IMG/VR virus record: IMGVR_UViG_3300047440_000434
Span: 311-64,310 of that record
From: a virus
Lineage: Duplodnaviria > Caudoviricetes
Reading direction: 5' to 3' (one strand)
DNA length: 64,000 nt
In this document: piece by piece, positions 1,545 to 63,184 of the stretch
How the letters are laid out: the number at the start of each line of letters is the position of its first letter
Numbering within the stretch: position 1 is the first letter of the stretch
Made by a program: the position numbers and the translations under genes
The notes under the pieces: model-generated
What the model saw: only the letters and a program-made list of their open reading frames with translations
What the model was told of the DNA's origin: nothing
Database searches by the model: none

Positions 1545-1834
1545 CAGGTCAGTCCGATCTTACTACGGTCGTGAATGTTCCTGGGACCGCCCTGCGCTTC
1601 GAGTTCCCAGCGCGCCGCCTGTTCGTCCAGGCTGGCGGCGGCGTCCGCCCGGCTGATCTCCCCGCCTTCCATCACGCCGCCCCCGCCGGGGCCGGTGGCC
1701 AGCATGATGGGCGGATACCCCCGCGCCGCTTCCACCCGCAGGTCCGCCGCCATCTTCCTGCATGCCCTCGCCATCAGGAACGGGTCGAGGGCGTAACTAT
1801 TACGCATCGTGCCCCGGCTTCGGTCCCTGGCCAT
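1544..1834 (-). CDS. Hypothetical protein
   Basis: Stop overlaps terL start; likely start MARDR at 1834 behind GGGGA. Confidence 0.6.
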   Translation of the reverse strand: MARDRSRGTMRNSYALDPFLMARACRKMAADLRVEAARGYPPIMLATGPGGGGVMEGGEISRADAAASLDEQAARWELEAQGGPRNIHDRSKIGLT

Positions 1835-1844
1835 GGCATCCCCG

Positions 1845-2015
1845 TTATAAACGTCCGGTGAGGAGCAATATGAGCAGGACGAGGAGAAGCACCCCGCCGA
1901 TACCGAAACCATAACCATAATATGGGCCCCCGGCGAAACCCGATCTGTAGCCGTAACCTCCTCCCAGCACGAGGAGGATGATCAGGACGACCAGGATCAG
2001 CATCAGCGGGCTCAT
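1845..2015 (-). CDS. Small two-TM membrane protein, DUF3309-like (56 aa; not in ORF track)
   Basis: Hand translation MSPLMLILVVLIILLVLGGGYGYRSGFAGGPYYGYGFGIGGVLLLVLLILLLTGRL; ATGA coupling with the upstream gene. Confidence 0.75.
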   Translation of the reverse strand: MSPLMLILVVLIILLVLGGGYGYRSGFAGGPYYGYGFGIGGVLLLVLLILLLTGRL

Positions 2016-2227
2016 GTGCGTGGGCTCCCATCGGGGTTACGGGTGATCGCGACGTTCACCCACATCGCGTTGGCCCGGTGCGCGCGGATGATGAAATCCT
2101 TATCCGGCCCGTCCGGCAGGTGCTGTTCCAACATGTCGCAATAAACCTTCGCCGAGTAGCGCAGGACTTTCATCGTATTCTGTTGCGCCTCGGTCGGCAT
2201 CAGGTAATCGAACGTGCTCGGGTGCAT
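2012..2227 (-). CDS. Acb2/Tad1-like helical-hairpin protein (putative nucleotide-signal sponge)
   Basis: Pattern F-D-Y-x-x-P...LP-D-G-P-D-K...AMWVNVAITR; AGGAG SD. Confidence 0.55.
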   Translation of the reverse strand: MHPSTFDYLMPTEAQQNTMKVLRYSAKVYCDMLEQHLPDGPDKDFIIRAHRANAMWVNVAITRNPDGSPRT

Positions 2228-2236
2228 GGCTCACTC

Positions 2237-2962
2237 CTATGGTGGGATTACTATGTCACGCCCGTCGGGCTCGACGGGTTCGGCCTTGATGGTGGTGAAT
2301 GTCTCGGTCTTGCCCGCGTTGGCGAACATGATCTGGATGGAGAACTTCGTCGCCTGGGGGCCACCGGAGCCCTGAGCAGCCGCGCCGTTACCCGTTGCCT
2401 GGGACCCGGCCATGATGGAGTGCTGCTTGACGGCATCCAGGCGCGTCTGCGCGGGCTGGTTCGGGTCCAGCATGATCCGCGCCGTGGTGGGGAGCGCGGC
2501 CAGCACGGCATGGCCGGATAGCTTTTTGATCCGCTCCTGGACGTTCTCGTCGCTCTCCCAGATCGCCCGGTATTCCTTGATCCTGCGCCGGATGACGTGC
2601 TGGTCACGCAGGAAATCCGCCATCTGGGCCACGTCGGTGAAGCCATAACGGATCGCGATGGTCGCATACGTGTCCACGTTCTGGGCCACGTCGGTGCAGA
2701 ACGCGTAGAGCACCTGGGGAGTGAACGAGGGCACCTGATCCAGGACCGCCGTGGCGTCGACGACGCCGTTTATCACCTCCTGGTCGGCCCGTTCCTCGTC
2801 GTCCGGCTCGGTTACTACGGGAGTAAGGTCCAGATCCGGACCGGGCCCCGTGCTCACCGTCATTTCAACAGGTGTTTCAGATACAATCAGGGGTTTTTCA
2901 CTCCTGACCCAGTTACTGAAAGGGCTGTCCTCACTATCCATGGTGGTCTCCACCGGGGTCAC
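2237..2962 (-). CDS. Putative terminase small subunit
   Basis: First gene of the terL operon; helical core with acidic N-terminus; size and position. Confidence 0.55.
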   Translation of the reverse strand: MTPVETTMDSEDSPFSNWVRSEKPLIVSETPVEMTVSTGPGPDLDLTPVVTEPDDEERADQEVINGVVDATAVLDQVPSFTPQVLYAFCTDVAQNVDTYATIAIRYGFTDVAQMADFLRDQHVIRRRIKEYRAIWESDENVQERIKKLSGHAVLAALPTTARIMLDPNQPAQTRLDAVKQHSIMAGSQATGNGAAAQGSGGPQATKFSIQIMFANAGKTETFTTIKAEPVEPDGRDIVIPP

Positions 2963-3030
2963 GCACCCTATGTGGTTGCCACATAAGTGATTTATACGCT
3001 AATGGGAAATGATACGAGGGGGCAAACCCA
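2963..3030. promoter_or_regulatory. Divergent promoter region with inverted repeat TATGTGG-TTG-CCACATA (2969-2985)
   Basis: 68-bp AT-richer gap between head-to-head terS and portal genes. Confidence 0.55.
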
Positions 3031-5262
3031 TTGCCAGTGGCCCAAGCAGGTCTGTCGTCCAGTTCTTACCCGGCCCAGGCCCGTTCGGCTGGCGAGAACG
3101 GTGGTTTTCTGCGTGTCGTCTCCCCGGCGCAGCTAAATCAGCGCGATCAGGAGGCGAATACCCGCCGCGCGAAGGCCAGTAAGCCCCTGGAGACCCCGGA
3201 TCTGGGGTCCTGGATCAGGCAACAGTGGTTTATCTTCAGAAATCACCGAAATCAGGGCAATAACCCCATAAATGAGCGCCTTTTGCGCGCTCAGCGCATG
3301 TTTGAGGGCAAATATGACGCCACCAAACTGTCCCAGATCCAGGCTTTTGGCGGTTCCGAGGTCTATTCGCGCATCGTGGCGAACAAAAGCAGGGGTGCCA
3401 CGGCGCTTTTGAGAGACGTTTATCTCGGCACGGAGCGCCCCTGGACGCTCAATCCGGTCACCGATCCGCCCATTCCGCCCGAAATTCGGACCGCTATCCT
3501 GCAGTTGATCGCCACCGAGGTCGACACGCAGCGTCAGGCGGGCCAGCCGGTGGAGGAAAATCAGGTCCACACCCGCTACGTCACGCTGCTGCACTCGGCG
3601 CAACAGGCCACCCGCCGCAACGCGATGATGCAAGCCCACGCCGCCGCCGACAAAATGGACGACATCCTCCAGGCGGGCGGGTTCTATGAGGCCATGGGCG
3701 AGTTCCTGCAGGACCTGCCCCTGTTTCCCTTCGCCGTCCTCAAGGGGCCCGTCGTCCGCATGGTCCCCCGGCTGACGTGGCTGGACAAGAAACCAAGTAT
3801 TCAGAACAAGCCGGTCATGTTCTGGGAACGGGTCAACCCGTTCGACGTCTACTGGTCCCCCGGCGCTTCGGCGCTCGCCGACGCGGCCATCATCCAGCGC
3901 GTGAGATACACACGAGCGGATCTGAACGACCTGCTGGGCGTGCCGGGCTATGACGAGACGGCGGTGCGCAACGCGCTCACCGACTACGCCAACGGATTAC
4001 GCGAGTGGCTGGACGCGCCTGATCCTGAACAGGCCATCAACGAGGGGCGGGAAGATCCATCCCTGAACCGGTCCCAGTACATCGAGGGGATCGAGTTCCA
4101 CGGCAATGTACAGGGCCAGACGCTCTTGGATGAGGGCGTAAACCCCAAGCTCATTCCCGACCCGGACCGCGAATACATGATCCAGTCCTGGGTCGTCGGA
4201 CGTTGGACGATCAAGACCCAGATCAATCCCTCCCCGCGCAAGCGTCATCCGTTCTACCTCACCAGTTTCGAGAAGGTCCCCGGCACCATCGCCGGGCACG
4301 CGCTGCCGGATATCCTGGAGGACATCCAGGAAGTCGCCAACGCCGCGTTCCGCGCCCTCGTCAACAACCTCTCGATCTCGTCTGGGCCGCAGGTCATCGT
4401 CAACGACGAGATGGTTTCGCCCACCGAGAACGGCGACGAGCTATATCCGTGGAAACGCTGGCATGTGCAGGGCGATCCGCTGGGTAACCAGCGCGAGCCG
4501 GTTACGTTTTTCCAACCAACGTCGAACACCCAGGAACTCCTGGGCGTCATCAACGCGGTCAACACCATGGCCGACGAACAGTCGGCCATCCCCAGGTATC
4601 TGACCGGAGAAAGCCTCTCTGGAGGTGCCGGGCGCACGGCGTCCGGCCTCGGCATGTTGATGAACAACGCCGCCAAGATCCTGCAGACCGTGGCGGCGAA
4701 CATCGACACCAACGTCCTGGAGCCGCTGATCGAGGCGCTCTATGAAATGATCATGCTGACGGACACGTCGGACATGCTCACGGGCGAGGAGCAGATCAAA
4801 GTCCTCGGCAGCAAGGTCTCGGCGCAGAAAGAGACCGAGCGCCAGCGGCAACTACAATTCCTGCAGATCACCGCGAACCCGATTGATGGACCCATCATCG
4901 GCCAGATCGGGCGTGCCCGGCTGCTGCGGTCGATCTCGGAGGGCATGGGGCTGCCGGACGACATCGTGCCCGACGACCAGACCCTCAAGGCCCAGGAGGA
5001 CGCCCAGAAGCGTCTTCAGGCGGCGGGCATGGCCGTTCAGGCGCACGCCCAGGCCGCTGGTGCCCACGCACCGGGCCCGCCAGGGCAGGAGCAGGAGAAG
5101 AAACCGGGAGAGCCCCAGGGTCCGCCCGGTCCGCCGGGCCCGCCGGGGATGCCGTCTCCGGGGGCACAGGCGCAAGGCGGTCAGTCACCCAAACCAGGAC
5201 CGCCCCAGGGACCTCGCGTCAACTCGTTTAGCCAGGGCACAGGAGCACCAGCACATGTCTGA
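3031..5262 (+). CDS. Portal protein
   Basis: 743 aa, first gene of the head operon; RTASGLGMLM motif typical of podovirus portals; Pro/Gln-rich tail; TTG start after GAGGGG. Confidence 0.85.
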   Translation: MPVAQAGLSSSSYPAQARSAGENGGFLRVVSPAQLNQRDQEANTRRAKASKPLETPDLGSWIRQQWFIFRNHRNQGNNPINERLLRAQRMFEGKYDATKLSQIQAFGGSEVYSRIVANKSRGATALLRDVYLGTERPWTLNPVTDPPIPPEIRTAILQLIATEVDTQRQAGQPVEENQVHTRYVTLLHSAQQATRRNAMMQAHAAADKMDDILQAGGFYEAMGEFLQDLPLFPFAVLKGPVVRMVPRLTWLDKKPSIQNKPVMFWERVNPFDVYWSPGASALADAAIIQRVRYTRADLNDLLGVPGYDETAVRNALTDYANGLREWLDAPDPEQAINEGREDPSLNRSQYIEGIEFHGNVQGQTLLDEGVNPKLIPDPDREYMIQSWVVGRWTIKTQINPSPRKRHPFYLTSFEKVPGTIAGHALPDILEDIQEVANAAFRALVNNLSISSGPQVIVNDEMVSPTENGDELYPWKRWHVQGDPLGNQREPVTFFQPTSNTQELLGVINAVNTMADEQSAIPRYLTGESLSGGAGRTASGLGMLMNNAAKILQTVAANIDTNVLEPLIEALYEMIMLTDTSDMLTGEEQIKVLGSKVSAQKETERQRQLQFLQITANPIDGPIIGQIGRARLLRSISEGMGLPDDIVPDDQTLKAQEDAQKRLQAAGMAVQAHAQAAGAHAPGPPGQEQEKKPGEPQGPPGPPGPPGMPSPGAQAQGGQSPKPGPPQGPRVNSFSQGTGAPAHV

Positions 5263-5443
5263 GAACAAAGTCGAGCGCACCAGCAGCGGTTCGTCGATGA
5301 AAGCATCCGGCGGCGGATCGAGCGGCGGGAATACGGGCCCCACCGGTTCTGGCCGCAGCTACCCGAAAGGGAAGTCGATCCGCCGTACGGACTGGAACCC
5401 GGAGAAGAAGCCCGCTTCCACCTACGGAATTTGCGGAGCGTGA
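5255..5443 (+). CDS. Small Gly/Ser/Lys-rich protein
   Basis: AGGAG SD then ATG 5255 (MSENKVERT); coupled to neighbours. Confidence 0.6.
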   Translation: MSENKVERTSSGSSMKASGGGSSGGNTGPTGSGRSYPKGKSIRRTDWNPEKKPASTYGICGA

Positions 5444-5643
5444 CGTCCGACATCCTGCAGTTCTTCGCCTACGAGCATCTGCCGGAACATCTGGCCAAGG
5501 TTAGCGCGCCGTTCGGTCAACTGGCGCGCGAACTGGTCGCCAATCTCCCGCGCAATCCAGAGCGTAGCGTGGCGCTGCGCAAATTACTCGAGGCCAAGGA
5601 CGCCGCCGTGCGGGCGAGACTGTACAAACCACCGGAGGGGTGA
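5440..5643 (+). CDS. Conserved small phage helical-hairpin protein (possible distant Acb2/Tad1-like)
   Basis: FFAYEHLP...LPRNPERSVALRKLLEAKDAAVRA; GGAG SD and GTGA coupling. Confidence 0.7.
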   Translation: MTSDILQFFAYEHLPEHLAKVSAPFGQLARELVANLPRNPERSVALRKLLEAKDAAVRARLYKPPEG

Positions 5644-5644
5644 C

Positions 5645-5983
5645 ATGGCGCTATTGCCCATTGGTGCTGGATCGGGCGTGGGTGGGACGCTGTTCGGTGG
5701 CGGGGGCGGCATCGGCGGCCCCTTCACCACCAAGGTCGGTGGCGGCAAGGACGCCAGCCACCAGCAGCTGGGCTCGCCGCACGCGGGCACCAAAAACACC
5801 CTGACCAAGGGCGATCCGGCCCTGCGCTCGATGGGTCAATACGGGAAGGGCGGCAAGCTCGGGGTGACGTCGCGCATCCAGGGCATCAAGGGCGGCATCA
5901 CCCGCCCCGTGGGCGGGCTCGGGCCGGGGCGTAAGGGCCAGCCTGGGCCGAAGGGCGACTACAGCATGAAAAATCCGTTCTGA
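5645..5983 (+). CDS. Gly/Lys-rich basic protein
   Basis: GGAGG SD; in operon. Confidence 0.65.
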   Translation: MALLPIGAGSGVGGTLFGGGGGIGGPFTTKVGGGKDASHQQLGSPHAGTKNTLTKGDPALRSMGQYGKGGKLGVTSRIQGIKGGITRPVGGLGPGRKGQPGPKGDYSMKNPF

Positions 5984-6002
5984 TTTACTCCGGGAGTGAA
6001 GC

Positions 6003-6281
6003 GTGAGTGTGAATTTAGGCAACGACGCGATCATGGCGATCAAGGAACTGCGCGGTAACTCCCACTTCGAGAACCTCGTGGCTCACCTGGGAGCGTTCGC
6101 GCAGAACATGGTGCTCTCGTCGTGCGACGCCGACGTGAACACCCGCGTCGACAAGACCGCCTATGCGCGGGGTTTCTATCACATGTGGCAAGCGATCCAC
6201 GCCGCGCACGCTGATCTGCACATGAGTCAGGTGAAGATGGCCCCACCGAAGGGCGTGAAGGGAGCAATGGCCAATGTCTGA
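6003..6281 (+). CDS. Hypothetical protein upstream of scaffold
   Basis: SD supplied by the 17-bp motif at 5984-6000; typical portal-scaffold linker position. Confidence 0.7.
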   Translation: MSVNLGNDAIMAIKELRGNSHFENLVAHLGAFAQNMVLSSCDADVNTRVDKTAYARGFYHMWQAIHAAHADLHMSQVKMAPPKGVKGAMANV

Positions 6282-7308
6282 CACGATCACGCATCAGCCG
6301 TACCTGCCCGACGCCGTTCGCCGCGCGTCCGCCCGCGCCGACGAGCTTGCCCGTGAAGCGGGCGTGGCCAACGTACCCGACGCGCCCGAGGGTGATACTC
6401 CCGTAGTAAACAACGATCCGCCGACGCGGGAGACGCGGTTCGAACTGACCCCGCCGCCCGAGGACCTGGATGCGCCGCGTGACCCTCCACCCCAACACCA
6501 GGGCAACGAGTGGGAGCAGCGTTATAACACGCTGAAGGGTAAGTACGACTCCGAGATCCCCGAGCTACGCGGCCAGTTACAGTCCGTGCAGACCATGATG
6601 GCGCAGATGAACCAGCCGCGCCGGGCCGAGGACACGTTCGAGAACGTGCCGCGCTCGCGCCCGATGCCGCCGCCCACGCGCGAGGTGCCCCCGGAAGATG
6701 TCGAGGCTTATGGACAAGACCTGATCGAGGCGTCGCAGCGTTGGGCCGACGCGCGATACGCGCCCATTTTACAAGACTACGAACGGCGTTTGATCGCGGT
6801 CGAGTCGGGCAACCAGCAACTGGCGACGTACACGACGCAGCGTGGCGTGGACGCGTCGCTGACCCAGGCCGTTCCCGACTGGGAACAGATCAACGTCGAT
6901 CCGAAATTCATCATGTGGCTGGACCAGCAGGACGTGTTCAGCGGGCAAAAACGCAAACTTCTTATTGACAACGCTTACAATTCGGGCGATGCGGGAAGGA
7001 CCATCGCGTTCTTCCGTGCGTACAAGAACGAGCAGACCGTGGTTGGCCAGCAGCCAGGGACACAGACGTTCCAGACCGATCAGGCGGAACGGCTACCCCT
7101 CGCCGATCTGGCGGTGCCTGGACGAGGGCGTAGCGTCTCGTCACCAGCACCCGGCGCTCCTGAGTCACGCATTTGGACGACGGCGGACGTCAACGCGTTC
7201 TATCGACAAAAGCAGCGTGGATATTGGAACGGACGTGAAGCGGAAGCTGAGCGTCTGGAGCGCGATATCATTCTGGCTCCACTCGAAGGGCGCTTCCGTC
7301 AGTCATGA
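6274..7308 (+). CDS. Putative capsid scaffolding protein
   Basis: Directly upstream of the capsid gene; coiled-coil (WEQRYNTLKGKYDSE) and C-terminal EGRF. Confidence 0.7.
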   Translation: MSDTITHQPYLPDAVRRASARADELAREAGVANVPDAPEGDTPVVNNDPPTRETRFELTPPPEDLDAPRDPPPQHQGNEWEQRYNTLKGKYDSEIPELRGQLQSVQTMMAQMNQPRRAEDTFENVPRSRPMPPPTREVPPEDVEAYGQDLIEASQRWADARYAPILQDYERRLIAVESGNQQLATYTTQRGVDASLTQAVPDWEQINVDPKFIMWLDQQDVFSGQKRKLLIDNAYNSGDAGRTIAFFRAYKNEQTVVGQQPGTQTFQTDQAERLPLADLAVPGRGRSVSSPAPGAPESRIWTTADVNAFYRQKQRGYWNGREAEAERLERDIILAPLEGRFRQS

Positions 7309-7338
7309 CATCCCCATTTGTGAGAGGAGCGGCCTTCC

Positions 7339-8280
7339 ATGGCCATCACAGTAGCGGCAACCCCATTCGCGGGTGCCAACCAGACCCCCGCGTACCATGG
7401 CACGTTCATCCCCGAGATCTGGTCAGGTAAACTGATCGAGAAGTTCTACTCGGCCACCGTGCTCAGCGCCATCGCCAACACGGACTACGAGGGCGAGATC
7501 AAGAACCAGGGCGACGTGGTTCACATCCGCACCAAGCCGACGATCACGATCAGGGATTATCAGGTCAACCAGGACCTGCTCATTGATCGCCCGTCCAGCA
7601 ACATCGTCGACTTCACCATCGACAAGGCGAAATACTTCAACGAAGCCCTCGACGACATCATGGAGGTCCAGTCGGACATCAACATGCTGTCGCTCTGGTC
7701 GGACGACGCCGCCGAGCAGATGAAGATCGTCATCGACACCGACGTGCTCACCACCATCGACGCGGGCATCGTTCCGGCCAACAAGGGTGCCACGGCGGGA
7801 CGCATCTCGCTGAACATCAACCTGGGTGCCACGGGCGCGCCGATCCCGATCACGCCGCTGAACATCATCGACAGCATCGTGGACATGGGCACCGTGCTGG
7901 ACGAGCAGAACATCCCGGAGACGGGGCGTTGGCTGGTCATCCCGCCGTGGGTGGCGGCGCTGATCAAGAAGTCCGACCTGCGCAACGCGTCCATCTCGGG
8001 CGACGGCGTGTCCATGACGCGCAACGGGCGGCTGGGCATGATCGACCGGTTCACCCTCTACTCGTCCAACCTGCTGCCGACGGCGACCGAGGGTGCGACC
8101 AACGCGTTCCGCATCTTCGCCGGTCACCCGCATGGTCTGACTTTCGCGAGCCAGATCACCAAGCTGGAGCAGATGCGCTCCGAGCGTTCGTTCTCGACCT
8201 TGCTGCGTGGCCTTCAGGTCTACGCGTCAAAGGTCCTGGACGGCATCGCCATCACCGAACTCTACGCCATTCGGGGATAA
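7339..8280 (+). CDS. Major capsid protein
   Basis: FIPEIWSGKL...DYEGEIKNQGDVVHI motif of P22-coat-like capsids; strong GAGGAG SD; very biased codons. Confidence 0.9.
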   Translation: MAITVAATPFAGANQTPAYHGTFIPEIWSGKLIEKFYSATVLSAIANTDYEGEIKNQGDVVHIRTKPTITIRDYQVNQDLLIDRPSSNIVDFTIDKAKYFNEALDDIMEVQSDINMLSLWSDDAAEQMKIVIDTDVLTTIDAGIVPANKGATAGRISLNINLGATGAPIPITPLNIIDSIVDMGTVLDEQNIPETGRWLVIPPWVAALIKKSDLRNASISGDGVSMTRNGRLGMIDRFTLYSSNLLPTATEGATNAFRIFAGHPHGLTFASQITKLEQMRSERSFSTLLRGLQVYASKVLDGIAITELYAIRG

Positions 8281-8297
8281 GTTTACTCCCGTCGTAA

Positions 8298-8319
8298 ACC
8301 GCTGGCTTCGGCCAGCGGT
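8298..8319 (+). terminator. 9-bp hairpin with C(UUCG)G tetraloop after capsid gene (attenuator or stabiliser)
   Basis: ACCGCTGGC-TTCG-GCCAGCGGT; no U-tract; directly follows the motif copy at 8282-8298. Confidence 0.5.
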
Positions 8320-8332
8320 AACGGAGGTTCGC

Positions 8333-8713
8333 ATGGCGAAACGCAAGGGCTACGCCCAAGGCGGCAAGGTCACCACCGGTAACGCTGACTTTCGCGGGGA
8401 CGCGGATATTCGCGGTATTCCCGACACGCCCCGAGGCAGGGCGTTCACGGGCGACGCGGACGTTCGCGGCATCCCCAACACGCCCACGCCCAGCGGGCGA
8501 AAGTTCGGCATGGAGAATAAATTCGGTCCCAGCGCGGCACCGGGTTTCGCCAAGGGCGGCAAGGTTAAATTCGAAGGCACGAAAAAGGATATGGCGCAGG
8601 ACAAGGCGGGCGCGAAGAAGATGGGCATTTCCCAGCGTGCGTATGAGAAAACCGCCAAGGACAAAGCCCAGGATAAAGCCGGTCAACGCCAAATGTATGG
8701 GAAGCGCAAATGA
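8333..8713 (+). CDS. Basic virion-associated protein with internal repeat
   Basis: GGAGG SD; GYAQGGKV and GFAKGGKV motifs; GDAD(I/V)RGIP(D/N)TP twice. Confidence 0.7.
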   Translation: MAKRKGYAQGGKVTTGNADFRGDADIRGIPDTPRGRAFTGDADVRGIPNTPTPSGRKFGMENKFGPSAAPGFAKGGKVKFEGTKKDMAQDKAGAKKMGISQRAYEKTAKDKAQDKAGQRQMYGKRK

Positions 8714-8997
8714 GAGCACCATCGAATTTGAAAGCCGCGAGCAAGGGCGCGGGCAAGACCAAGATGCCCGCCGGTTTCGGTGCCCCGAAGAAGTCGGGAC
8801 CCAAGCTGCCCACGGGCGTCGCCGGTCCGCCCGCCCCGCCAGCGCCCGCCGGTCCGCCCACGCTGGCATCGGGTGGCCCCGGCGCGCCGAGCGCGTCCTC
8901 GGCTCCCGACGGGCCCGTGCCGCCCATGGGCTTTAACAAAGGCGGTAAGGTGAAGAAGTCCATGCCGTTCAAGCCATTCAAGAAGGGCCGTCGCTAA
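8710..8997 (+). CDS. Pro/Lys-rich small protein
   Basis: ATGA coupling; GFNKGGKV motif. Confidence 0.65.
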   Translation: MRAPSNLKAASKGAGKTKMPAGFGAPKKSGPKLPTGVAGPPAPPAPAGPPTLASGGPGAPSASSAPDGPVPPMGFNKGGKVKKSMPFKPFKKGRR

Positions 8998-9814: not shown

Positions 9815-9823
9815 GACCTGAGC

Positions 9824-48596: not shown

Positions 48597-48597
48597 A

Positions 48598-51640: not shown

Positions 51641-51649
51641 CCACCCCTC

Positions 51650-54307: not shown

Positions 54308-54329
54308 GTAGTTTCACTCCTGTAGTAAA

Positions 54330-55837: not shown

Positions 55838-55863
55838 TATTCACTCCCGTCGTAAAGGTTGGG

Positions 55864-55906: not shown

Positions 55907-57073
55907 TCAGGCCCGCGCCGCGATCAGCAGGTCCTTGTTCTTGATCAGCCACTGGCTGAACAATGGCGAGTTCGCCACCATCTTGGCGCGTTGCTGGTGT
56001 TTGGTGATGGTGCCCACCGCCAGCGTCTGCATCTCGATGTTGAGCCGCCCGATGTAGCGGATAATCTTGTCCCCATTGGTTGGTGACACGTTATGCGCCA
56101 GCATGTGCGCGCACACCATCTGCGCGTCCTTGGTGGCGGGGAGCTTCGCCGTCATCGGGTCCTTCTCGATGTCGGCGATGTCGGGGAGCATGTCGGCGAA
56201 TTTGATGTGCGTGAAGTATTGCGCGCTCTCGCCGCCGCCGATCCAGCCCTGGCACACCTCACGCGCCACGTTGTCCGACGGTAGTAAACCACGCTGCTCA
56301 TCCTCGTCCGAGCGCAGCGCCCGCAGATCCCGGTCCATTAGTATGAGCGTGCGAGGGGTGCAGAAAGGCCCGTCACCGGGAGGAACTTCCTCGCGGAACA
56401 CCAAGTGTGGGTTCTTCTCCGCGAAGCTGACCGTGAGATAGTGCGGCTGCTCCTCCAAAGGCAGGTTGTTCACCCAGTCCAGCCACGTCGGCAGGTGCGC
56501 CTCGATGTTCACCTCCATCCGCCTGTTGGTGACGAAAGTTAACGCCCTCATCACGCCCGAGCGGTCGCTCAGGCGGTTGCTGGCGGCGATGACGCGCCAT
56601 CCCAGGGGAAGCCGCGTGTTGCCCACTTCGCCGTGCAGCACCAGTTCCGCCGCTGCTTTCTTGCAGTCATCGTCGGCCTGACCGAACTCATCGAGGAAGA
56701 CGATGCCCACACGCGGCATCGCGCCGTCCCAGGTGCCAGACAGATATTTACTACCGTCGGGAGTAAACACCACCATGGTGGCCTTGGTCGGATACCACGG
56801 CGGGGTCGAGAACACCGTGTCGAGCCCCGTCGGGGTCTTCTGCGGGATCATAAACCCGCGCACGTCGATGCTCTGGATGGTGGCGAGCATCAGGGTGGTC
56901 AGGCCCACGGGTTCGTTCAGCGCCCTGGCGAGCGCGAAGCCGACGTCATCGACCGTGCTGGACTTGCCCACACCCGGTCCCGACTTCCACTCCATGGCGT
57001 TGGCCCGCTTACCCGCCTTGAGGGCGGCGATATGGGTGCGGACGGCGACCTGGAGAGCTTGCGTGAGGTTCAT
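55907..57073 (-). CDS. MoxR-like AAA+ ATPase
   Basis: GPGVGKS, VFLDEF, VIAASN, NRR, TPRT. Confidence 0.88.
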   Translation of the reverse strand: MNLTQALQVAVRTHIAALKAGKRANAMEWKSGPGVGKSSTVDDVGFALARALNEPVGLTTLMLATIQSIDVRGFMIPQKTPTGLDTVFSTPPWYPTKATMVVFTPDGSKYLSGTWDGAMPRVGIVFLDEFGQADDDCKKAAAELVLHGEVGNTRLPLGWRVIAASNRLSDRSGVMRALTFVTNRRMEVNIEAHLPTWLDWVNNLPLEEQPHYLTVSFAEKNPHLVFREEVPPGDGPFCTPRTLILMDRDLRALRSDEDEQRGLLPSDNVAREVCQGWIGGGESAQYFTHIKFADMLPDIADIEKDPMTAKLPATKDAQMVCAHMLAHNVSPTNGDKIIRYIGRLNIEMQTLAVGTITKHQQRAKMVANSPLFSQWLIKNKDLLIAARA

Positions 57074-57094
57074 ATAGTTTCACTCCTGTAGTAA

Positions 57095-57307
57095 TTAACG
57101 AGGACTGGCGAGGAAGCTCCACAAAAGCACGCCCACGACCGCCATGATGGCGAAGCCGAGGATAGCCACGATAAACGGATGCAGCACGAGCCCGAGCACG
57201 CCGTAGACCATTGTCGCCCCGTAATACATGATCACGAGGAAGACAGACACGAGGATAAACCCGACTATGGGCGGCGTGTTGTTCGGCGCGGGATCATTCG
57301 TTTCCAT
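57095..57307 (-). CDS. Two-TM membrane protein
   Basis: Two hydrophobic helices; bounded by motif copies. Confidence 0.7.
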   Translation of the reverse strand: METNDPAPNNTPPIVGFILVSVFLVIMYYGATMVYGVLGLVLHPFIVAILGFAIMAVVGVLLWSFLASPR

Positions 57308-57313
57308 TTCCTT

Positions 57314-57565
57314 TCACTCCTGTATTAAAGTTTCAATTATCGCCAGCAACACCAGCGATGTCTCGTCGAACCGGACCACGCGCCCGGCTGGGCGACGCTG
57401 GGGCGCGAGCGGTATCACGGCGACGCTCCCGCCCGGATATCGCCAGCCGTCCGCGTATAACCCGCGCAGCCACGTCTCCAGCGCGAGTGCCGCCGTGTCC
57501 GCCGTGATCCAGCCGGACGCGGGCATACCATCACCGACGTATTCGGCGATCACGAACCAGTTCAT
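57314..57565 (-). CDS. Small early protein, paralog of 57575-57859
   Basis: Ends LIQE* inside a motif copy. Confidence 0.7.
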   Translation of the reverse strand: MNWFVIAEYVGDGMPASGWITADTAALALETWLRGLYADGWRYPGGSVAVIPLAPQRRPAGRVVRFDETSLVLLAIIETLIQE

Positions 57566-57574
57566 CGGTCTTAT

Positions 57575-57859
57575 TCACTCCCGTATTAAACTGTTGATCT
57601 CATCCATGAACTCCCGTTTTATCATGGCGACGATGGCGTGCACGGCCAGTGAGTGCCGAGGTAGCGTCACGGTATTCTCATGGCTGGCCAGCGCGTCGCC
57701 GAGTGAGGGCCACGCTGATATCGCATCTCCGTTCCACGCATACCCGGCTGAGTACGCGAGCCGCAGCCATGCCTCGACGGCACCCATGGCGTCATCCGCT
57801 TCCACCCATTTCGATGCTCCGCCACCCTCTGGGTAAACCGTCCCGACGTACCAGTCCAT
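57575..57859 (-). CDS. Small early protein, paralog of 57314-57565
   Basis: Ends LIRE* inside a motif copy. Confidence 0.7.
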   Translation of the reverse strand: MDWYVGTVYPEGGGASKWVEADDAMGAVEAWLRLAYSAGYAWNGDAISAWPSLGDALASHENTVTLPRHSLAVHAIVAMIKREFMDEINSLIRE

Positions 57860-57882
57860 CTCCTTTCACTCCCGTATTAAAC

Positions 57883-58195: not shown

Positions 58196-58199
58196 TGTT

Positions 58200-58361
58200 T
58201 TACTCCCGTATTAAACTACAGTCGTGCGCGACGTAGCCATCACATGGGATGTCGCACTCAACCTCGGCGTATGCCATGTCGCGTGCTTCCTGCTCATTCT
58301 CCGCTTCATAGTCAGCAGCATAGTCACGGATGATGTAGGTTTTCACCATATATTTCGGCAT
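58200..58361 (-). CDS. Small acidic early protein (53 aa; not in ORF track)
   Basis: MPKYMVKTYIIRDYAADYEAENEQEARDMAY...SLIRE*; motif at both ends. Confidence 0.65.
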   Translation of the reverse strand: MPKYMVKTYIIRDYAADYEAENEQEARDMAYAEVECDIPCDGYVAHDCSLIRE

Positions 58362-58366
58362 TGGTT

Positions 58367-58552
58367 TCACTCCCGTATTAAATTAAACGTATCACACACC
58401 TCGGCCAGCGCGGCGATGCGCACCATGTCGCGCTCCATGGCGAGCAGGGGTTCGCGCAGGTGCTGGCCCAGACCCTGCGTGTTCGCCATGTCGCGATAGC
58501 GGTCGGCGGCGGCGAGCAGCCCGGTTATCAGGTGGTCCTTGTTTACGTCCAT
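58367..58552 (-). CDS. Small early protein
   Basis: Start MDVNK behind the motif SD; ends NLIRE*. Confidence 0.65.
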   Translation of the reverse strand: MDVNKDHLITGLLAAADRYRDMANTQGLGQHLREPLLAMERDMVRIAALAEVCDTFNLIRE

Positions 58553-58676
58553 CGTTTTACTCCCGTAATAGGTGGTCCCCGCCTCCCACACCCGTTCACT
58601 GGTGGAGAGCGCCGCATGGGGTCGATCCCGGTCAACATGCGGTCGAGCGTGGTAAGACGGCGGGGGTAGCCACTGG

Positions 58677-58916
58677 CTACGCTTGTTCCGTGGCCCGCTC
58701 CAATGCCGCCATGACCCTGGCCTTCGTCACCTCCTCGGGCAACAGGTCGCGATACTGGACCACGCCGCACGCGGCGAGCCATGTGTCGAGGTTGAACCGG
58801 GGGTTGTCGCGTTTCAGCGACCTGCCCAGGGCGTGCGCCGCCACGGACCTGATCAGGGGGCTCTCGATGTCAGCGAGCCCGGCGGCGAGCGTGACGTAGT
58901 GGCGTTTGGTCATCAT
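58677..58916 (-). CDS. Small early protein
   Basis: MTKRHYVTLA...DNPRFNLDTWLAACG, a recurrent small phage family. Confidence 0.7.
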   Translation of the reverse strand: MMTKRHYVTLAAGLADIESPLIRSVAAHALGRSLKRDNPRFNLDTWLAACGVVQYRDLLPEEVTKARVMAALERATEQA

Positions 58917-58917
58917 G

Positions 58918-59259
58918 TTATTTCACTCCTGTCGTAAATTTACTCGTGTCGGGCTCGCGAAGCGCGAACTCGATGGGCGGGGGGTTGTCCCTACGTTGAT
59001 AGCCAACCCAGTGACTGGCCCATATGGTTTCGAGGCAGCCCGTGCGGTCGTGCAACTCGATGCGAGCGATTGAGCGGGCGTTGCGGGCGACCATGGGCGC
59101 TTCGGCCAGATCGCAGGGGTTATCGGACTGCGCCGCGCATGTGATACGCGGGGGCTCGCCCCTGGGCGTGTGCCATGTGACCATTATGCGGTAGGTTTTG
59201 GTGGGCGTCGGCCACTCGGCATCGTAGGTGCGCGCGCGGCCAGCGTTGCGGTAGTTCAT
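58918..59259 (-). CDS. Hypothetical early protein
   Basis: Ends FTTGVK*, encoded by the motif. Confidence 0.55.
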   Translation of the reverse strand: MNYRNAGRARTYDAEWPTPTKTYRIMVTWHTPRGEPPRITCAAQSDNPCDLAEAPMVARNARSIARIELHDRTGCLETIWASHWVGYQRRDNPPPIEFALREPDTSKFTTGVK

Positions 59260-59483: not shown

Positions 59484-59505
59484 TGTTTTACTCCCGTAAT
59501 AATGT

Positions 59506-59967: not shown

Positions 59968-60301
59968 GGTGCGGTAGATCCTTATGTCGGGGTCAGGGTT
60001 GGAGCGATTGTTTGTTACTCCGGTATTAAACAAAGGCACAACTCGACAGCGCCAGATCATGGCTATTATGGACAGAATGTCATTTTCAGGTGTCATTCCC
60101 TGCCAAGCAAAGTCGAGCACGGGACAATGGTCGATCCCGAATAAGTGATTGATCGAACGCGATAATTCGCGGCGGCTTGCTATACTGTTTGTGGTGTTGC
60201 CACAAACAGGAGGGCTTAGGAACCAGGGGGCATAGAGAGTGCGCGACATGGCAGTCCTCACGCGTAACGTGATATGTTTGGTGCAGCTTCACATGGCAAT
60301 C

Positions 60302-60342
60302 ATTATTTATTTATATATAATTTTAATAATATCAATAACTTA
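60302..60342. other. Extreme AT-rich tract (candidate origin unwinding element or promoter)
   Basis: 39 of 41 bases are A/T in a GC-rich genome; lies in a non-coding gap of about 650 bp. Confidence 0.5.
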
Positions 60343-60621
60343 GAGCGCGGTCGAGCCCAGCAAAAGTGCTGCAATTTCTTGGTCGAGCACGTCGGATCAA
60401 TGGGTTACCTTGCGGCACTCGATCCATGCGGCGCGGAAAACATTTGTTAGTTGCGGGCGTGCACCGGATCATTCGATGATCCGGCCCTGGCCCTACATAT
60501 TCACTCGCTTTGTCTAGCGTGCGCACGCTAACGCGCACGTTAGAGCAAGCGAGCGGGGGGTATCATCCCCCCGCCGCTCATACCCACACACTAGTGTGGA
60601 AAGTTACTACCCGTAGTAAAC

Positions 60622-61575
60622 TCAGGCCACCAGCAGGGACGTCATCACCTGACGCTCGATCAGGTTGGCGCTCGCGGCGGCACGCGCCGCCGCGTCACCG
60701 ATCAGGCTATCAAACTCATCGTAGTCCAGCACGCCCTCGGCGACATCGGCTTCCGCTTGCGCGGAAGCCTCAGCAGGGGCAGGAGCGGCGATGACAGGCG
60801 CGGGGGCTTCCACTACCGGCGGCGGCGTAAGCGCCGCCTGAGAGGCAAGCAGGGTCTTACGCGCGGCAAGCAGTTCCTCGGTCGTGATCGTGCGGAGATA
60901 CTCGGCGGCGGTTTGCAGTTCCTCCATCCCGAAGTCCGCGTGGAAGGCGTCGATGCTCGCGATGATGGTCTTGAGGCGCGCGGCCACCTTGGTGGCGTTG
61001 TGGTCCGGGTCGTTCGCCACCGCGTAGTCCACGAGGTCCTGCTTGGACATGCTCCCGTTGAGCGTGCCATCCTTCACGGCGCGGGCGACATTCATCAGCA
61101 GGTGGTAGAACCTGCTCTGCCACTTGCGAACCGGGGTTTTGATCGCGTCGCGATCCTCACGCTCGACCGATGCGAGCAACTCAGTCTCATCGGCCCATGC
61201 CTCATCGCAGATTTCCCGCAGGTTCGGCAGGTAGCCGCGAACCTTGGGGCTCGCGAAGGTCTTCATTTCGGAGATGAACACGCCCACGCTCTTGGCGCTG
61301 CGCGATGCGTCGCCGCCCGATGCGTTGCCCATTTTCGCGGCACGCTCGCAAGCCTGCGCCACTTCGCCGTTGGTCCAGTCCTCGGCGTGCGCCATCGCGG
61401 CCACGTCCGTTACCACGCTGAGCCGGGTATTGCTCCCGTCACGCGATGCCTCTTGCATCGCCTCTTGCGCGTCTTCCATGCGCTGCGTGGGTTCGGCGAC
61501 AGCCGAGCACGCGGCGCGGATGCGGTGCGCGATATCGTCAACGCGGTCGGATACCATCGGGGTTGATTTGGCCAT
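60622..61575 (-). CDS. Hypothetical early protein (317 aa, helical)
   Basis: Well-biased codons; motif copies at both ends. Confidence 0.75.
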   Translation of the reverse strand: MAKSTPMVSDRVDDIAHRIRAACSAVAEPTQRMEDAQEAMQEASRDGSNTRLSVVTDVAAMAHAEDWTNGEVAQACERAAKMGNASGGDASRSAKSVGVFISEMKTFASPKVRGYLPNLREICDEAWADETELLASVEREDRDAIKTPVRKWQSRFYHLLMNVARAVKDGTLNGSMSKQDLVDYAVANDPDHNATKVAARLKTIIASIDAFHADFGMEELQTAAEYLRTITTEELLAARKTLLASQAALTPPPVVEAPAPVIAAPAPAEASAQAEADVAEGVLDYDEFDSLIGDAAARAAASANLIERQVMTSLLVA

Positions 61576-61624
61576 GGTGTGTTACTCCGGTATTAAAGTT
61601 GAGGGTCCAAGCAATGCGCTTGCT

Positions 61625-61650: not shown

Positions 61651-61660
61651 CGTAAGAGCA

Positions 61661-61840
61661 TCAATCAGTGATGCGATTGTGCCAAGGCAGCGCCATGAAA
61701 CCGCAGACGCTGATGGTGGCGTCATCGGGGTATGCTTCGAGAGGTTCGGCCGGATCGAAGTCCTCTTGATCCGGCGACAGTCTGTTTAATACCGTAGTAT
61801 CAATCAGGAACGTCATAGCGTCGAAGTCGAAGGTTTCCAT
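61661..61840 (-). CDS. Small acidic protein
   Basis: AAGGA SD, start METFDF. Confidence 0.5.
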   Translation of the reverse strand: METFDFDAMTFLIDTTVLNRLSPDQEDFDPAEPLEAYPDDATISVCGFMALPWHNRITD

Positions 61841-61928
61841 TGAAGTTTTCCTTACTTGCGCGGGAGTAGCATGATGATGACGGGGGAAAGCACGCTGACG
61901 ATGAGCATCGTCATATGAAGTGTGAACA

Positions 61929-62072
61929 TCAGGCACCTTTGCTAATGAAGAAAGACGCGCCGAAGCGGCCAACGCGTATGAAGCGAAGCCCACCCACCTT
62001 GCGATAGGTGCAACGCGGCCAGCACAGCGGCGCGATGATGGACGTAAGTCCGAGCAGCATTGGAAGTGTCAT
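61929..62072 (-). CDS. Small protein
   Basis: GAGGA SD, start MTLPM; KVGGLRFIRVGRFGASF. Confidence 0.5.
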   Translation of the reverse strand: MTLPMLLGLTSIIAPLCWPRCTYRKVGGLRFIRVGRFGASFFISKGA

Positions 62073-62073
62073 G

Positions 62074-62322
62074 TTATCCTCTTGCTCCGATGAAAGCGCG
62101 CGCCACGTCCGGCGCACTTGTTATGCCTTTGCAAGCACCTGTTGATCCGCCCATCATGTTGCCCTTGAGCTTCCATGTATTGGACATAGGACCGGCTGCG
62201 TATTTCTTGATTTTGAACCGTTCGGGGTAAACCGTGGGCTCGCGTTCGCTTAACGGCGCGGCGCAATAGATCGGTTTGAACTGATCTATCACAACGCGCT
62301 TTTCTGGGTATGGTTTGAACAC
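62074..62322 (-). CDS. Small basic protein (first early gene?)
   Basis: SD from the motif at 62325-62341. Confidence 0.5.
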   Translation of the reverse strand: MFKPYPEKRVVIDQFKPIYCAAPLSEREPTVYPERFKIKKYAAGPMSNTWKLKGNMMGGSTGACKGITSAPDVARAFIGARG

Positions 62323-63184
62323 TGGTTGCTCCCGTAGTAAATCGAAGACATCAGTCAGAACGTATTGACCGCGGGAGCAACGCTATTGGCGCGCCGTTAG
62401 ACTGGCGCGCCATGCGTTAGGCTTAGGCGTTAGGGGTTGTGGCACTTTGTGGTCTCGATCCCTCCGCACTGGGTATGCCGCTTTATTGTTCGCTGATGTA
62501 GCGTCCAATCGCGTCCCGCCGGAACCCATTTGGCAATGTGATTTGTCATTGCCGGGCAAAGCCGTTGAAAGCTAAGCCGATTGAGGGACCTACTCGTTTT
62601 TATCGTAAGGTTCCGAGCGAACCTGACCACGCGCGGAGACTAAATTTCCCGCAATTTAATACCGTAGTAGCGTGTCAGGCTACTAGATACCGTGGCATTT
62701 GGGCTACTCTGGCGTTAAGACGCGCAGTTCCCTACTCCACCCCGTTTTCAGTCGCTCGTCATCGCGTGCTCGCATAGTCGGCAAAGTAGATTGCGAGCAC
62801 GACCCAACTTAGGCCACAGGGTTTGCGCGTCCCCAGCGGGGGTGCGCTATGCCAGTCACGACGCATCGTGACCGGAGGCGAACGCTGGTAGCGACATCCC
62901 GTTGCGCCGGGGGCTTTCCACACCTTGCGGGGGCGGATTAAATACCGGCATAACAGCGGCAGACGGTGGCCCACCCCCCACCCCCCATCTGTCCAAGGGG
63001 GGGCCCCCGGCCCCACCGCCTTTAGGTTCTCCCCCTCTACGTGACTGCCCTTTTTCAAATATCCACACCTATGAAACTGTTGCGCCACAAAAATAAAATC
63101 CAGGGCATTTTTAGAAACCACATTACATCTCTTGCGGTAGCGGATCTTTCTGAGCTATGAAGCGTTCACGCTTGACACCCCCCT

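Follow-up and report, generated by a model that had tools for sequence, protein, structure and literature searches.

Why would a phage carry the same 17-bp inverted repeat dozens of times, both between its genes and inside them? The question is raised by a stretch of 64,000 nucleotides (the window), which comprises bases 311–64310 of one 64,310-bp virus contig (IMG/VR record IMGVR_UViG_3300047440_000434; Duplodnaviria, Caudoviricetes). An initial annotation of the window, made from the letters alone, had described a genome-wide array of about 50 copies of a palindromic site and had suggested a dimeric protein as its binder. We find that the array is real and more structured than first seen. 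The motif is start-associated and contains a ribosome-binding site; inside genes it occurs as a two-armed duplex site; and it is part of a family-wide, diversifying set of sites.

The site is enriched throughout the window

Read on the coding strand, the 17-bp word is TTTA[C/A]TAC-G-GGAGT[A/G]AA. Sites were defined by at most four mismatches to TTTACTACGGGAGTAAA or its reverse complement. This yielded 46 distinct sites (3, 14, 16 and 13 at 1, 2, 3 and 4 mismatches, respectively), where about 2 are expected by chance. The first site lies at 1559–1575 and the last at 62655–62671, which reproduces the extent given before, and the three copies that had been quoted as examples (8282, 18177 and 57865) are all present. 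Copies occur in the terminase (1559 and 2811), structural, replication and early modules. The consensus exactly as written in the initial annotation is not matched exactly anywhere in the window; allowing up to two mismatches gives 26 matches, where the expectation from 100 dinucleotide shuffles is 0.01. The largest gap, given before as about 4 kb, runs from 47826 to 52267 and measures 4,441 bp. The motif is A+T-rich in a G+C-rich genome, as had been noted (58–69% G+C in the window).

Enrichment inside genes was assessed with a codon-preserving shuffle (200 rounds), which kept every protein sequence and the codon usage of each gene; sites at least 30 nt inside genes were counted. With up to four mismatches, 22 such sites were seen against 1.6 expected (maximum 5), with up to three 14 against 0.5, and with up to two 5 against 0.08. 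The copies at 13830 and 15228 count as one event because they are copies of one protein-level repeat. The claimed array thus holds under this control. By location, the 46 sites divide into 22 inside genes, 18–19 at gene starts and 5 others.

Start copies are fused to a Shine-Dalgarno sequence

The initial annotation had set the motif apart from the start-associated sequences of Cluster K mycobacteriophages because those sit at gene starts, a distinction that is not supported. Eighteen copies (and one doubtful one) lie 2–10 nt ahead of a start codon (ATG or GTG) followed by an open frame of 40 codons or more. Each is co-oriented with its gene and has GGAG at Shine-Dalgarno distance, and for this reason we regard start association as a main property of the motif. 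Thirteen start copies fall in the interval 57–62.4 kb. The stop of the preceding gene falls at motif positions −2 to 1, 5, 7 or 16, and where it is inside the word it is TAA at positions 3–5 or TGA/TAA at positions 14–16. As the upstream stop adjoins the word or sits inside it, the word makes up the whole intercistronic spacer in the early operon (54–62 kb).

The right arm also occurs by itself. GGAGTGA or GGAGTAA without the left arm precedes the genes at 2012–2227, 49272–49784, 51650–52465, 52588–53043 and 54524–55471, and G at position 15 is present in 11 of 19 start copies compared with 3 of the 27 others. These two observations indicate that the right arm is the preferred ribosome-binding site of the phage. 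Start sites invariably have G at position 13. On general grounds, pairing of GGAGTGA with 16S rRNA may extend past the core.

All of this could suggest that the word acts in translation initiation only, as an extended ribosome-binding site with A+T-rich flanks that keep the region unstructured and with intragenic copies as by-products. The open start regions agree with that explanation (folding no better than shuffles; z +0.7 to +1.2 at three of the six start sites folded). We nevertheless find it quite unlikely. It does not account for the 22 deep intragenic copies, half of which are antisense, or for the mirrored degeneracy of the arms described below, or for the dyads of relatives that lack a Shine-Dalgarno sequence (ACTAC-N1-GTAGT and CCCTAC-N1-GTAGGG) and have the Shine-Dalgarno word as a separate element.

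Symmetry of the copies outside gene starts

The 27 non-start copies show no strand preference, 15 being sense and 12 antisense, and those of the asymmetric A7/G11 type divide into 8 sense and 7 antisense. The site had been called a palindrome. Its TTTACT and AGTAAA arms are indeed complementary, but the dyad is imperfect, since the inner A of the left arm is faced mostly by G instead of T in the right arm, which creates the GGAG. In the 27 non-start sites, conservation is nearly equal at the mirrored positions 1/17, 2/16, 3/15, 4/14, 5/13, 6/12 and 8/10. The minor variants are mirrored as well (G6 six times, C12 five times), and G6 and C12 never occur in one site in the window. The motif can thus be written as an 8-bp half-site, TTTA[C/A][T/G][A/C]C, used twice in inverted orientation with one central base between.

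A palindrome gives an identical hairpin on both strands, and the dyad could instead be a stem-loop in single-stranded DNA or RNA, either a lagging-strand priming or loading signal for the DUF927 primase-helicase of the phage or an element of RNA processing or stability. The family has the primase-helicase among its core genes (7 of 7 genomes), the sites are roughly 1–3 kb apart on either strand, and spacer length is free within a genome in the relatives named G008 (N5/N6) and G007 (N1/N2). The way the arms vary argues against pairing. Across eight genomes, we counted 343 one-armed deviations, against 12 that were alike in both arms and 9 that were unlike, where 41 doubles are expected with independent arms, a count that the mismatch cap biases against doubles. 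Since deviations are one-armed and compensatory changes are absent, a base-paired hairpin is unlikely. Moreover, the innermost C (position 8; 27/27) and G (position 10; 26/27) are invariant in the non-start sites although they are unable to pair around a one-base centre, which favours a reading of the sequence of each arm in duplex DNA. RNA folding of ten sites gave no consistent hairpin (z > −0.5 in nine of ten, no better than shuffles), and an Rfam scan of the window returned no match. Overall, we consider the stem-loop explanation unlikely.

Relatives keep the layout and change the arms

Scanning viral contigs with the exact degenerate word returned 22 stretches, about the number expected by chance, and four contigs with many near-matches. 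With up to three mismatches these relatives hold 21 (G001), 12 (G002), 9 (G003) and 4 (G004) sites, whereas the reversed word has no match in any of the four. G001 is a complete genome of 67,234 bp with terminal repeats. The four are 73–80% identical to the window over their alignable parts. The intragenic enrichment is repeated in G001 (13 sites against 1.05 expected, maximum 3) and G002 (8 against 0.3, maximum 2), and some intragenic sites (19091, 38358 and 43572) persist at the orthologous positions of the most distant relative among the four. G001 also has sites at places where the window has none.

Further away, related phages carry dyads of their own. The nearest portal and primase-helicase proteins are those of the Rhizobium phages RHph_TM27A/B, TM29 and TM3_14A (50% and 32% amino-acid identity, respectively). 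RHph_TM27A has no copy of the window's word. It has the dyad GTTACCT-N4-AGGTAAC at 44 sites (up to 3 mismatches in 14), compared with 2 for the reversed word; 13 of these are 1–5 nt ahead of starts in the deposited annotation and 16 are deep in genes. A portal alignment retrieved at least 577 relatives in viral contigs, of which 80 loci were kept. Of the 57 loci that span 9 kb or more, which cover the portal region only, about half contain an A+T-rich inverted repeat three or more times.

An over-represented inverted repeat was found in the window's own genome (G000) and in all 12 other family genomes scanned whole, namely G001, RHph_TM27A and the near-complete G005–G014. In a shuffle control (10 each of G010–G014) no 6-nt-arm inverted repeat occurred more than three times. 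G001 has the window's own motif. The dyad is TACTAC-N2-GTAGTA in G005 (16 exact), CCCTAC-N1-GTAGGG in G006 (13 copies), CACTAC-N1/2-GTAGTG in G007 (12 with N2) and G010 (5 with N2 and 4 with N1), ACTAC-N1-GTAGT in G009 (20), GCTAC-N1-GTAGC in G011 (11) and ACTCC-N1-GGAGT in G014 (16). G008 has TTACC-N5/6-GGTAA (49 exact) and G012 a weaker TTACC-N5-GGTAA (7 copies), both with the longer-arm form GTTACC-N5/6-GGTAAC. G013 has a weak TATAG-N3-CTATA (4 copies).

Eleven genomes contain 15–60 sites each, with differing arms. Between 13 and 39% of the sites are just ahead of starts (3–4% at random), and 40–60% are in coding sequence. The Shine-Dalgarno word is within the dyad in G014, as it is in the window, while in G005, G009 and G011 the dyad lies 12–14 nt ahead of the start and is often followed by a separate Shine-Dalgarno word. 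The word of the window appears to combine the ACTAC/GTAGT and ACTCC/GGAGT types. Arms and spacer thus diversify within a constant layout, a pattern that would require a co-evolving reader. Together with the intragenic enrichment on both strands, the mirrored degeneracy and the one-armed deviations, the dyads of the relatives support the earlier idea of a genome-wide site for a dimeric protein.

What may read the sites

The reading that we prefer, and to which we give a little less than an even chance, is that the 17-mer is this lineage's version of a family-wide dyad operator, read as duplex by a putative fast-evolving, phage-encoded dimeric protein. We infer that a protein reads the site and that the phage encodes it. 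Such a dimer would recognise the two inverted half-sites in double-stranded DNA, with a specificity that would change fast between related phages. In the window and its closest relatives the right half-site would have merged with the Shine-Dalgarno sequence (..GGAGTRAA), and through this merger the early-operon element would serve as spacer, ribosome-binding site and protein site. The giant structural genes leave no spacer room, and there the copies would be embedded in the genes themselves, on one strand or the other. Dimers on the DNA would stop RNA polymerase, cover the initiation regions and so silence the early operon, which is densely marked with 13 copies between 57 and 62.4 kb. The repeated copies would also, at the least as a by-product, form boundaries for gain and loss of gene cassettes. 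Our best guess for the function, by likeness to stoperators, is that the sites may exert global control by occupancy, as a roadblock, in an apparently non-integrating phage.

The one recognisable candidate for a sequence-specific DNA-binding protein is a 96-amino-acid (aa) winged-helix protein encoded at 52588–52878 on the reverse strand. Its Pfam matches are weak (HTH_20, MarR_2 and HTH_IclR, E 2.5e-5 to 1.2e-4), and HTH_IclR alone passes the curated cut-off; DNA binding is predicted from these matches. A motif copy (52889–52905, reverse strand) lies 10 nt ahead of the in-frame ATG 52878, which is probably the true start of this open reading frame (ORF) and gives the 96-aa form. The protein has an ortholog in G001, and no solved relative was found.

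Other proteins gave less. No repressor was recognised in profile searches of the window proteins, two ORFs matching phrog_1123 were not alike, the syntenic small ORFs of relatives had weak and differing helix-turn-helix or zinc-finger matches, and NCBIfam returned no match for any of the ten proteins that lack an assigned family. The non-structural proteins common to 7 of 7 genomes are replication and repair enzymes, an ATPase and VWA-peptidase protein, and proteins of 150 and 352 aa. For the 352-aa protein (43991–45049; model pLDDT 58.9) the fold search gave weak rows for Whirly, PrgE and gp32 (E 0.3–1.1). Together with its conserved cysteines and acidic tail, these make it likely a single-strand-binding protein and not the reader. 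A 233–297-aa protein encoded always just upstream of the polymerase gene evolves very fast (15–34% identity). Its 271-aa version in the window had no match by PDB profile or in the ESM Atlas, and as a reader it is a lead only.

A helical 315-aa protein (54524–55471) has no family or fold match; searching with its AlphaFold model (pLDDT 67.7) in Foldseek gave nothing at E ≤ 0.001. It was detected by tblastn in the six genomes with CTAC/GTAG-core dyads and not in the two with GTTACC arms, a distribution that may simply follow phylogeny.

Several observations weigh against a phage-encoded dimer as the reader of an operator array. Profile, fold and homology searches of the window proteins pinpointed no such protein, the winged-helix candidate was not found in any of five more distant relatives (G005–G009, E ≤ 0.01), and the models of two conserved proteins yielded no DNA-binding regulator. 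The spacer varies within a genome (G008, N5 25 times and N6 35 times; G007, N1 12 times and N2 22 times), which suits a stem-loop and fits a rigid dimer poorly, although a flexible dimer can tolerate it. Conservation does not single out the motif either: over all alignable orthologous sites in the relatives that share the word, its 17 columns are conserved at 487 of 614 positions (79.3%) and the flanks at 6282 of 7837 (80.2%). In addition, G005–G009 had been picked for a motif at the portal locus, a selection bias. G010–G013 had not been so picked (before selection the locus had no such motif in G010–G012, a weak one in G013 and a window-like one in G014), and here G012 is weaker than the preselected genomes and G013 is weak. 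Finally, the roadblock function is purely inferred.

G001 has no motif at the junctions orthologous to 5984, 8282, 18177 and 39671 and contains a motif-free stretch of 16.5 kb, so single sites are dispensable. As sites turn over in this way, it is their number that is kept and not their places. With respect to spacing, the 28 sites in the first 54 kb of the window are more even than random (coefficient of variation (CV) 0.59 against 0.95, P = 0.002), and even spacing was also found in G008 (CV 0.52, P < 0.001), RHph_TM27A (CV 0.71, P = 0.01) and G011 (CV 0.66, P = 0.03). In the remaining genomes tested it did not differ from random, and in the window the 36 sites that fit the symmetric consensus are bunched by the early operon (CV 1.18). 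In view of these mixed results, evenness is a tendency of site-rich genomes and no rule.

A bolder version of the same idea is that the dyads are genome-marking labels in the soil and rhizosphere phage family of at least 577 portal relatives: a fast-evolving phage protein would recognise dyads spread evenly over its own DNA and thereby tell self from host or competitor DNA. Such a label might serve in shut-off, shield the DNA from nucleases of the phage itself, or guide replication or packaging. Conflict between co-infecting relatives would then drive the diversification of arms, spacers and specificities, much as in immunity groups but in mostly non-integrating phages, and in the window lineage the label would have been fused with the ribosome-binding site. 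We hold this to be unlikely.

A nicking enzyme is another conceivable reader. Phages T5, tf and the phiKMV-like phages carry short conserved nick words, 4–14 per genome and at partly conserved positions, according to the cited passages (PMC3517423). The putative nickase of the window would be an 84-aa HNH protein (40008–40262), whose HNH_4 score of 25.9 bits exceeds the cut-off of 22 and which has homologs in G001 and RHph_TM27A, and the known nick consensus words, as given there, are of similar length and contain TACT (PMC3517423). However, the nicks described in that source for tf, T5 and phiKMV-like phages all fall on one strand and at words that are not dyads (PMC3517423), whereas the window sites are dyads whose asymmetric forms occur on both strands. 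Moreover, tblastn did not find the HNH protein in G005–G009, which carry dyads. It is very unlikely that the sites are nickase targets.

The reader could, finally, come from the host, as the alphaproteobacterial regulator CtrA or an A+T-preferring nucleoid protein. The CtrA box is TTAA-N7-TTAA, which TTAM-N7-GTRA in the motif resembles; relatives of the phage infect Rhizobium, and the motif stands out as A+T-rich. The window contains no full TTAA-N7-TTAA box, G13 is invariant in start sites, and a conserved host factor does not explain strong differences in the arms between related phages. An exact-motif scan of bacterial genomes gave at least 120 stretches. Among the 80 listed, each had a single match, the taxa were unrelated and no multi-copy host or prophage appeared. 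A host regulator appears extremely improbable.

Motif copies at the edges of gene cassettes

Strain variants assembled from other soil or rhizosphere metagenome runs (X2–X5) show that genes come and go at some copies. In a contig of run X5, position 57073 is joined to 57313, so that the gene 57095–57307 (reverse strand) is removed exactly between two direct copies; this gene encodes a 70-aa hydrophobic orphan without a relative by tblastn. A variant deletion of 349 bp ends 2 nt from the copy at 58366. Two runs have a shorter spacer with a better-matching copy at 58552, where 58553–58709 is replaced by a short stretch with its own copy. Furthermore, the ends of blastn alignments between the window and its relatives fall within 40 nt of 69% of the motif-bearing junctions (n = 13) compared with 38% of the others (n = 58).

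These joints could mean that the primary role of the junction 17-mers is to provide short homologies for cassette swaps. In T4-type phages, repeated regulatory cassettes have been proposed to act as such homologies. The difference between junctions is small, with only 13 bearing the motif, and intragenic copies have no excess of alignment ends (15%, against 13% at random positions). Gene junctions largely explain the alignment ends near motif sites. As dyad symmetry and intragenic copies would also be left unexplained, we judge a primary role as recombination linker distinctly unlikely; the cassette-edge role is more likely a consequence of repeated junction words than a selected function.

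Comparison with known repeat systems

The closest parallel in anatomy is found in Cluster O mycobacteriophages (the Corndog group), which lack an integrase and whose 17-bp dyad repeats are described as occurring in more than 30 copies genome-wide, denser at one end, at a mixture of intergenic, near-5′-end and mid-gene positions without an orientation rule (PMC4351075). The authors predict a dimeric binder and a role other than promoter control (PMC4351075). The window's array likewise consists of a 17-bp dyad in 46 intergenic and coding copies, with no orientation rule for the non-start ones. The Cluster O sequence is a different one, with almost invariant 7-bp arms around a 3-bp centre, TGTTCGGNNNCCGAACA, and the cited text states that those repeats are not closely linked to translation starts, unlike the window motif (PMC4351075). 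Host phylum and phage type differ too, and the passages cited describe no family-wide diversification of the arms. With another word, and with the Rhizobium phages named above as nearest kin, the window is not a member of Cluster O.

In placement, the sites resemble the start-associated sequences and extended start-associated sequences of Cluster K. There, in the portions of the work cited, a repeated word with a Shine-Dalgarno core lies 3–7 nt ahead of starts, mostly ATG, mainly of non-structural genes, and is conserved beyond what rRNA pairing explains (PMC3203893). The likeness lies in the start copies, all of which have GGAG. The Cluster K word is, however, a 13-bp asymmetric one, GGGATAGGAGCCC, reported in one orientation and almost never inside genes (PMC3203893), whereas the window word is mirror-symmetric and has most of its copies (27/46) on both strands away from starts.

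Stoperators of Cluster A (the L5 group) are similar in logic. As far as the cited passages go, up to about 30 sites are spread over these genomes, often in the short gaps between genes; the motif varies with the lineage, distances between motifs follow those between repressors, and bound sites halt elongating RNA polymerase (PMC9283540, PMC6550527). Tens of sites per genome and a lineage-specific motif (15–60 sites, 11 genomes) are shared features. Stoperators are asymmetric 13-mers that are read by a monomeric immunity repressor in temperate phages and are oriented predominantly one way relative to transcription (PMC9283540, PMC6550527). The window has a 17-bp dyad whose asymmetric non-start copies take both orientations, and no repressor or integrase was recognised in it. 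The anatomy of the array resembles that of Cluster O repeats, its placement that of start-associated sequences and its logic that of stoperators, and it belongs to none of the three.

In the temperate actinophage phiC31, too, the phage repressor binds a 17-bp inverted repeat that is found at numerous genome loci. The initial annotation had further considered segregation or a site-specific recombination target; no integrase and no ParB-type domain were found in the window, which speaks against both. The array is not of the parS/ParB or KorB type: the ParB family PF02195 is over the cut-off in none of five genomes, with no match in G000 and one weak match (23 bits) in G001. Nor is it a REP/RAYT system. 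REP elements with RAYT are extragenic palindromes that accompany a Y1 transposase gene, whereas the Y1 transposase PF01797 was found in 0 of 5 genomes and half of the copies are intragenic.

A full-text literature search found no paper naming RHph_TM27A, and one for palindromic intergenic repeats in Rhizobium phages returned a CtrA-phage paper alone. Genome-wide short repeats have been known from a few actinophage clusters, and among them stoperators alone have a known mechanism. A comparable array is now seen in an unrelated, abundant phage family of soil alphaproteobacteria. It adds that a dyad can be fused with a Shine-Dalgarno sequence, giving one element at the level of both DNA and translation, and that copies mark gene-cassette edges in natural strain variants. 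As RHph_TM27A has been cultured on Rhizobium phaseoli N831, the role of such arrays is experimentally testable.

The individual copies

Two clear start copies are on the forward strand. The one at 5984–6000, of C7/G11 type, precedes GTG 6003 by 2 nt and adjoins the upstream stop. The other, at 18177–18193 (one mismatch; ATG 18197, 3 nt on), contains the upstream stop TAA at its positions 3–5 and is kept in G002 and G004 and absent from G001. The doubtful start copy (28042–28058, forward strand, three mismatches, identical in G002) is followed after 3 nt by an ATG with an 80-codon frame, out of frame with the gene 27917–28690.

The other start copies are on the reverse strand. The copy 45878–45894 precedes GTG 45872 by 5 nt, and 47826–47842, with the upstream stop inside the motif, precedes ATG 47823 by 2 nt. 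Beyond the winged-helix ORF follow 54313–54329 (ATG 54307 of the metallopeptidase/VWA gene, 5 nt) and 55840–55856 (ATG 55837, 2 nt). The copies at 57079–57095 (ATG 57073, 5 nt) and 57313–57329 (ATG 57307, 5 nt) are the opposite edges of the cassette 57095–57307 that is absent in a strain variant. Next come 57574–57590 (ATG 57565, 8 nt; upstream stop TGA at positions 14–16), 57865–57881 (ATG 57859, 5 nt), 58199–58215 (one mismatch; ATG 58195, 3 nt), 58366–58382, next to the variant deletion (ATG 58361, 4 nt), and 58556–58572, which has the better-matching counterpart in variants (ATG 58552, 3 nt). The remaining ones are 58922–58938 (ATG 58916, 5 nt), 59487–59503 (ATG 59483, 3 nt; kept in G003), 61581–61597 (ATG 61575 of a 317-aa early gene, 5 nt; kept in G002 and G003) and 62325–62341 (two mismatches; GTG 62322 of an 82-codon frame, 2 nt).

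Among the intragenic copies, those antisense to their gene include 2811–2827 (forward strand, two mismatches) in the reverse-strand gene 2237–2962, which is identical in G002, and two reverse-strand copies with two mismatches in forward genes: 6394–6410 in 6274–7308, kept in G002 with one change, and 19091–19107 in 18853–19557, kept in G001, G002 and G004 with changes confined to degenerate inner positions. Also antisense are the weak copy (four mismatches) 25080–25096 on the reverse strand, the reverse-strand copies 32186–32202 (weak, four mismatches) and 34469–34485 (three mismatches) in the gene of a 2505-aa protein, and three forward-strand copies: 43572–43588 (three mismatches, symmetric type; 16/17 letters kept in G001) in the primase-helicase gene, 52267–52283 (weak, four mismatches) in the reverse-strand gene 51650–52465, and 56272–56288 (weak, four mismatches) in the ATPase gene.

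Sense copies on the forward strand are 13830–13846 (three mismatches), which is read in frame in the protein-level repeat of a 2003-aa collagen-like fibre gene, and its second, non-independent repeat copy 15228–15244; 20542–20558 (two mismatches; 984-aa gene; not kept in G002); and the weak, four-mismatch copies 24161–24177 and 35190–35206, the latter in the 2505-aa gene. On the reverse strand, 41520–41536 (three mismatches; not kept in G001) is sense to the primase-helicase gene. Three further copies are of symmetric type: 36924–36940 (forward, weak, four mismatches; 15/17 letters kept in G001) and 38358–38374 (reverse, weak, four mismatches; 16/17 in G001, where the central base alone differs), both in the 2505-aa gene, and 47042–47058 (reverse, three mismatches) in the SNF2 helicase gene.

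The copies at gene edges and in non-coding sequence are as follows. The first site, 1559–1575 (forward, four mismatches, symmetric A7/T11), is antisense to reverse-strand genes at the edge of ORF 1544–1918 and is not kept in G002. The copy 8282–8298 (reverse, one mismatch, antisense) sits between the stop of the capsid-like gene 7339–8280 and a G+C-rich hairpin; it is kept in G002 and G004 and absent from G001. The copy 11773–11789 (forward, two mismatches, sense) is in the 3′ end of 11452–11826, 33 nt ahead of the start at 11823, and 39671–39687 (forward, three mismatches) lies between the stop of the 2505-aa gene and a terminator-like hairpin. On the reverse strand, 39967–39983 (weak, four mismatches) is intergenic, 23 nt ahead of the start of the reverse-strand gene 39776–39943, and 60014–60030 (three mismatches, sense) is about 45 nt ahead of the ATG at 59968–59966. 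The copy 60604–60620 (reverse) is a variant with a two-base centre, TACTAC-GG-GTAGTA, directly after the stop of 60622–61575. The last two, 61785–61801 in the early leader region and 62655–62671 in a non-coding stretch of about 1 kb at the head of the leftward operon, are weak reverse-strand copies of symmetric type with four mismatches. The latter stretch (62118–63184) has no convincing gene; it contains long G runs near 62960–63000 and the motif copies 62325 and 62655.

Genome context and minor observations

Genes were called with our own ORF picker, based on third-position G+C. Leftward genes at 72–2962, among them the large terminase subunit, are followed by a rightward structural block (3031–39670) and by a leftward replication and early block that runs from about 62.7 kb down to 39.8 kb. 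Recognised in the structural block were the portal, the capsid, an 1152-aa protein with a lytic transglycosylase domain, three fibre proteins with S74 chaperone ends and the 2505-aa DarB-like protein. The leftward block encodes the DUF927 primase-helicase, an SNF2 helicase, VRR-NUC and PD-(D/E)XK nucleases, a family A DNA polymerase, the metallopeptidase/VWA protein and the ATPase, beyond which numerous small orphan genes follow. Searches of the window for an RNA polymerase, an integrase, ParB and a Y1 transposase were negative, and a tRNA scan found no tRNAs. Megablast of window positions 1–20000 against phage records gave short fibre-gene matches only, and no close DNA-level relative is deposited among them. 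Public sequencing runs that contain the window sequence are soil and rhizosphere metagenomes, and none of those listed is an RNA run.

An integrase search found none in G000, G001, G005 and G008. G012 (locus L268, record bases 318–731), which carries a terminal tyrosine integrase, is classified as a provirus. The deposited record MN988461.1 (L023 42248–45331) labels a homolog of the DUF927 primase-helicase ‘putative integrase’; for the window ortholog of that gene, Pfam and PHROG matches indicate a primase-helicase.

The fibre-like proteins encoded at 9824–11455, 11823–17834 and 19558–22512 each end in a Peptidase_S74 intramolecular chaperone domain, and the 2003-aa fibre protein has nine stretches of collagen triple-helix repeats. 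The 2505-aa protein (32153–39670) matches DarB-like antirestriction/polyvalent-protein families in its C-terminal third and is likely an injected protein. It has no D-x-D-G-D motif, and therefore no virion RNA polymerase was recognised. Two small proteins are possibly counter-defence or toxin-like: that of 2012–2227, with a sub-threshold Pfam row for the Acb2/Tad1 hairpin domain (E 0.058), and that of 45681–45872, with a likewise weak, sub-threshold row for a HicA-like fold (E 0.001).

A scan for sigma-70-like promoters in 52–64 kb gave 9 sites against 4.1 expected, none coinciding with a motif copy. In the non-coding gap 60262–60621, about 55 nt (60290–60345) are almost pure A+T in a genome of 63% G+C and are flanked by promoter-like hexamers on both strands; this may be an origin or early promoter region. 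The relative's locus L218 (1–160) has a 25-nt unit in six tandem copies. Finally, the genome ends (bases 1–170 of the contig and the last ~170 nt of the window) share a near-identical stretch of about 170 nt in which a few letters differ; this may reflect a terminal repeat or, in a circularly permuted genome, overlapping assembly ends.

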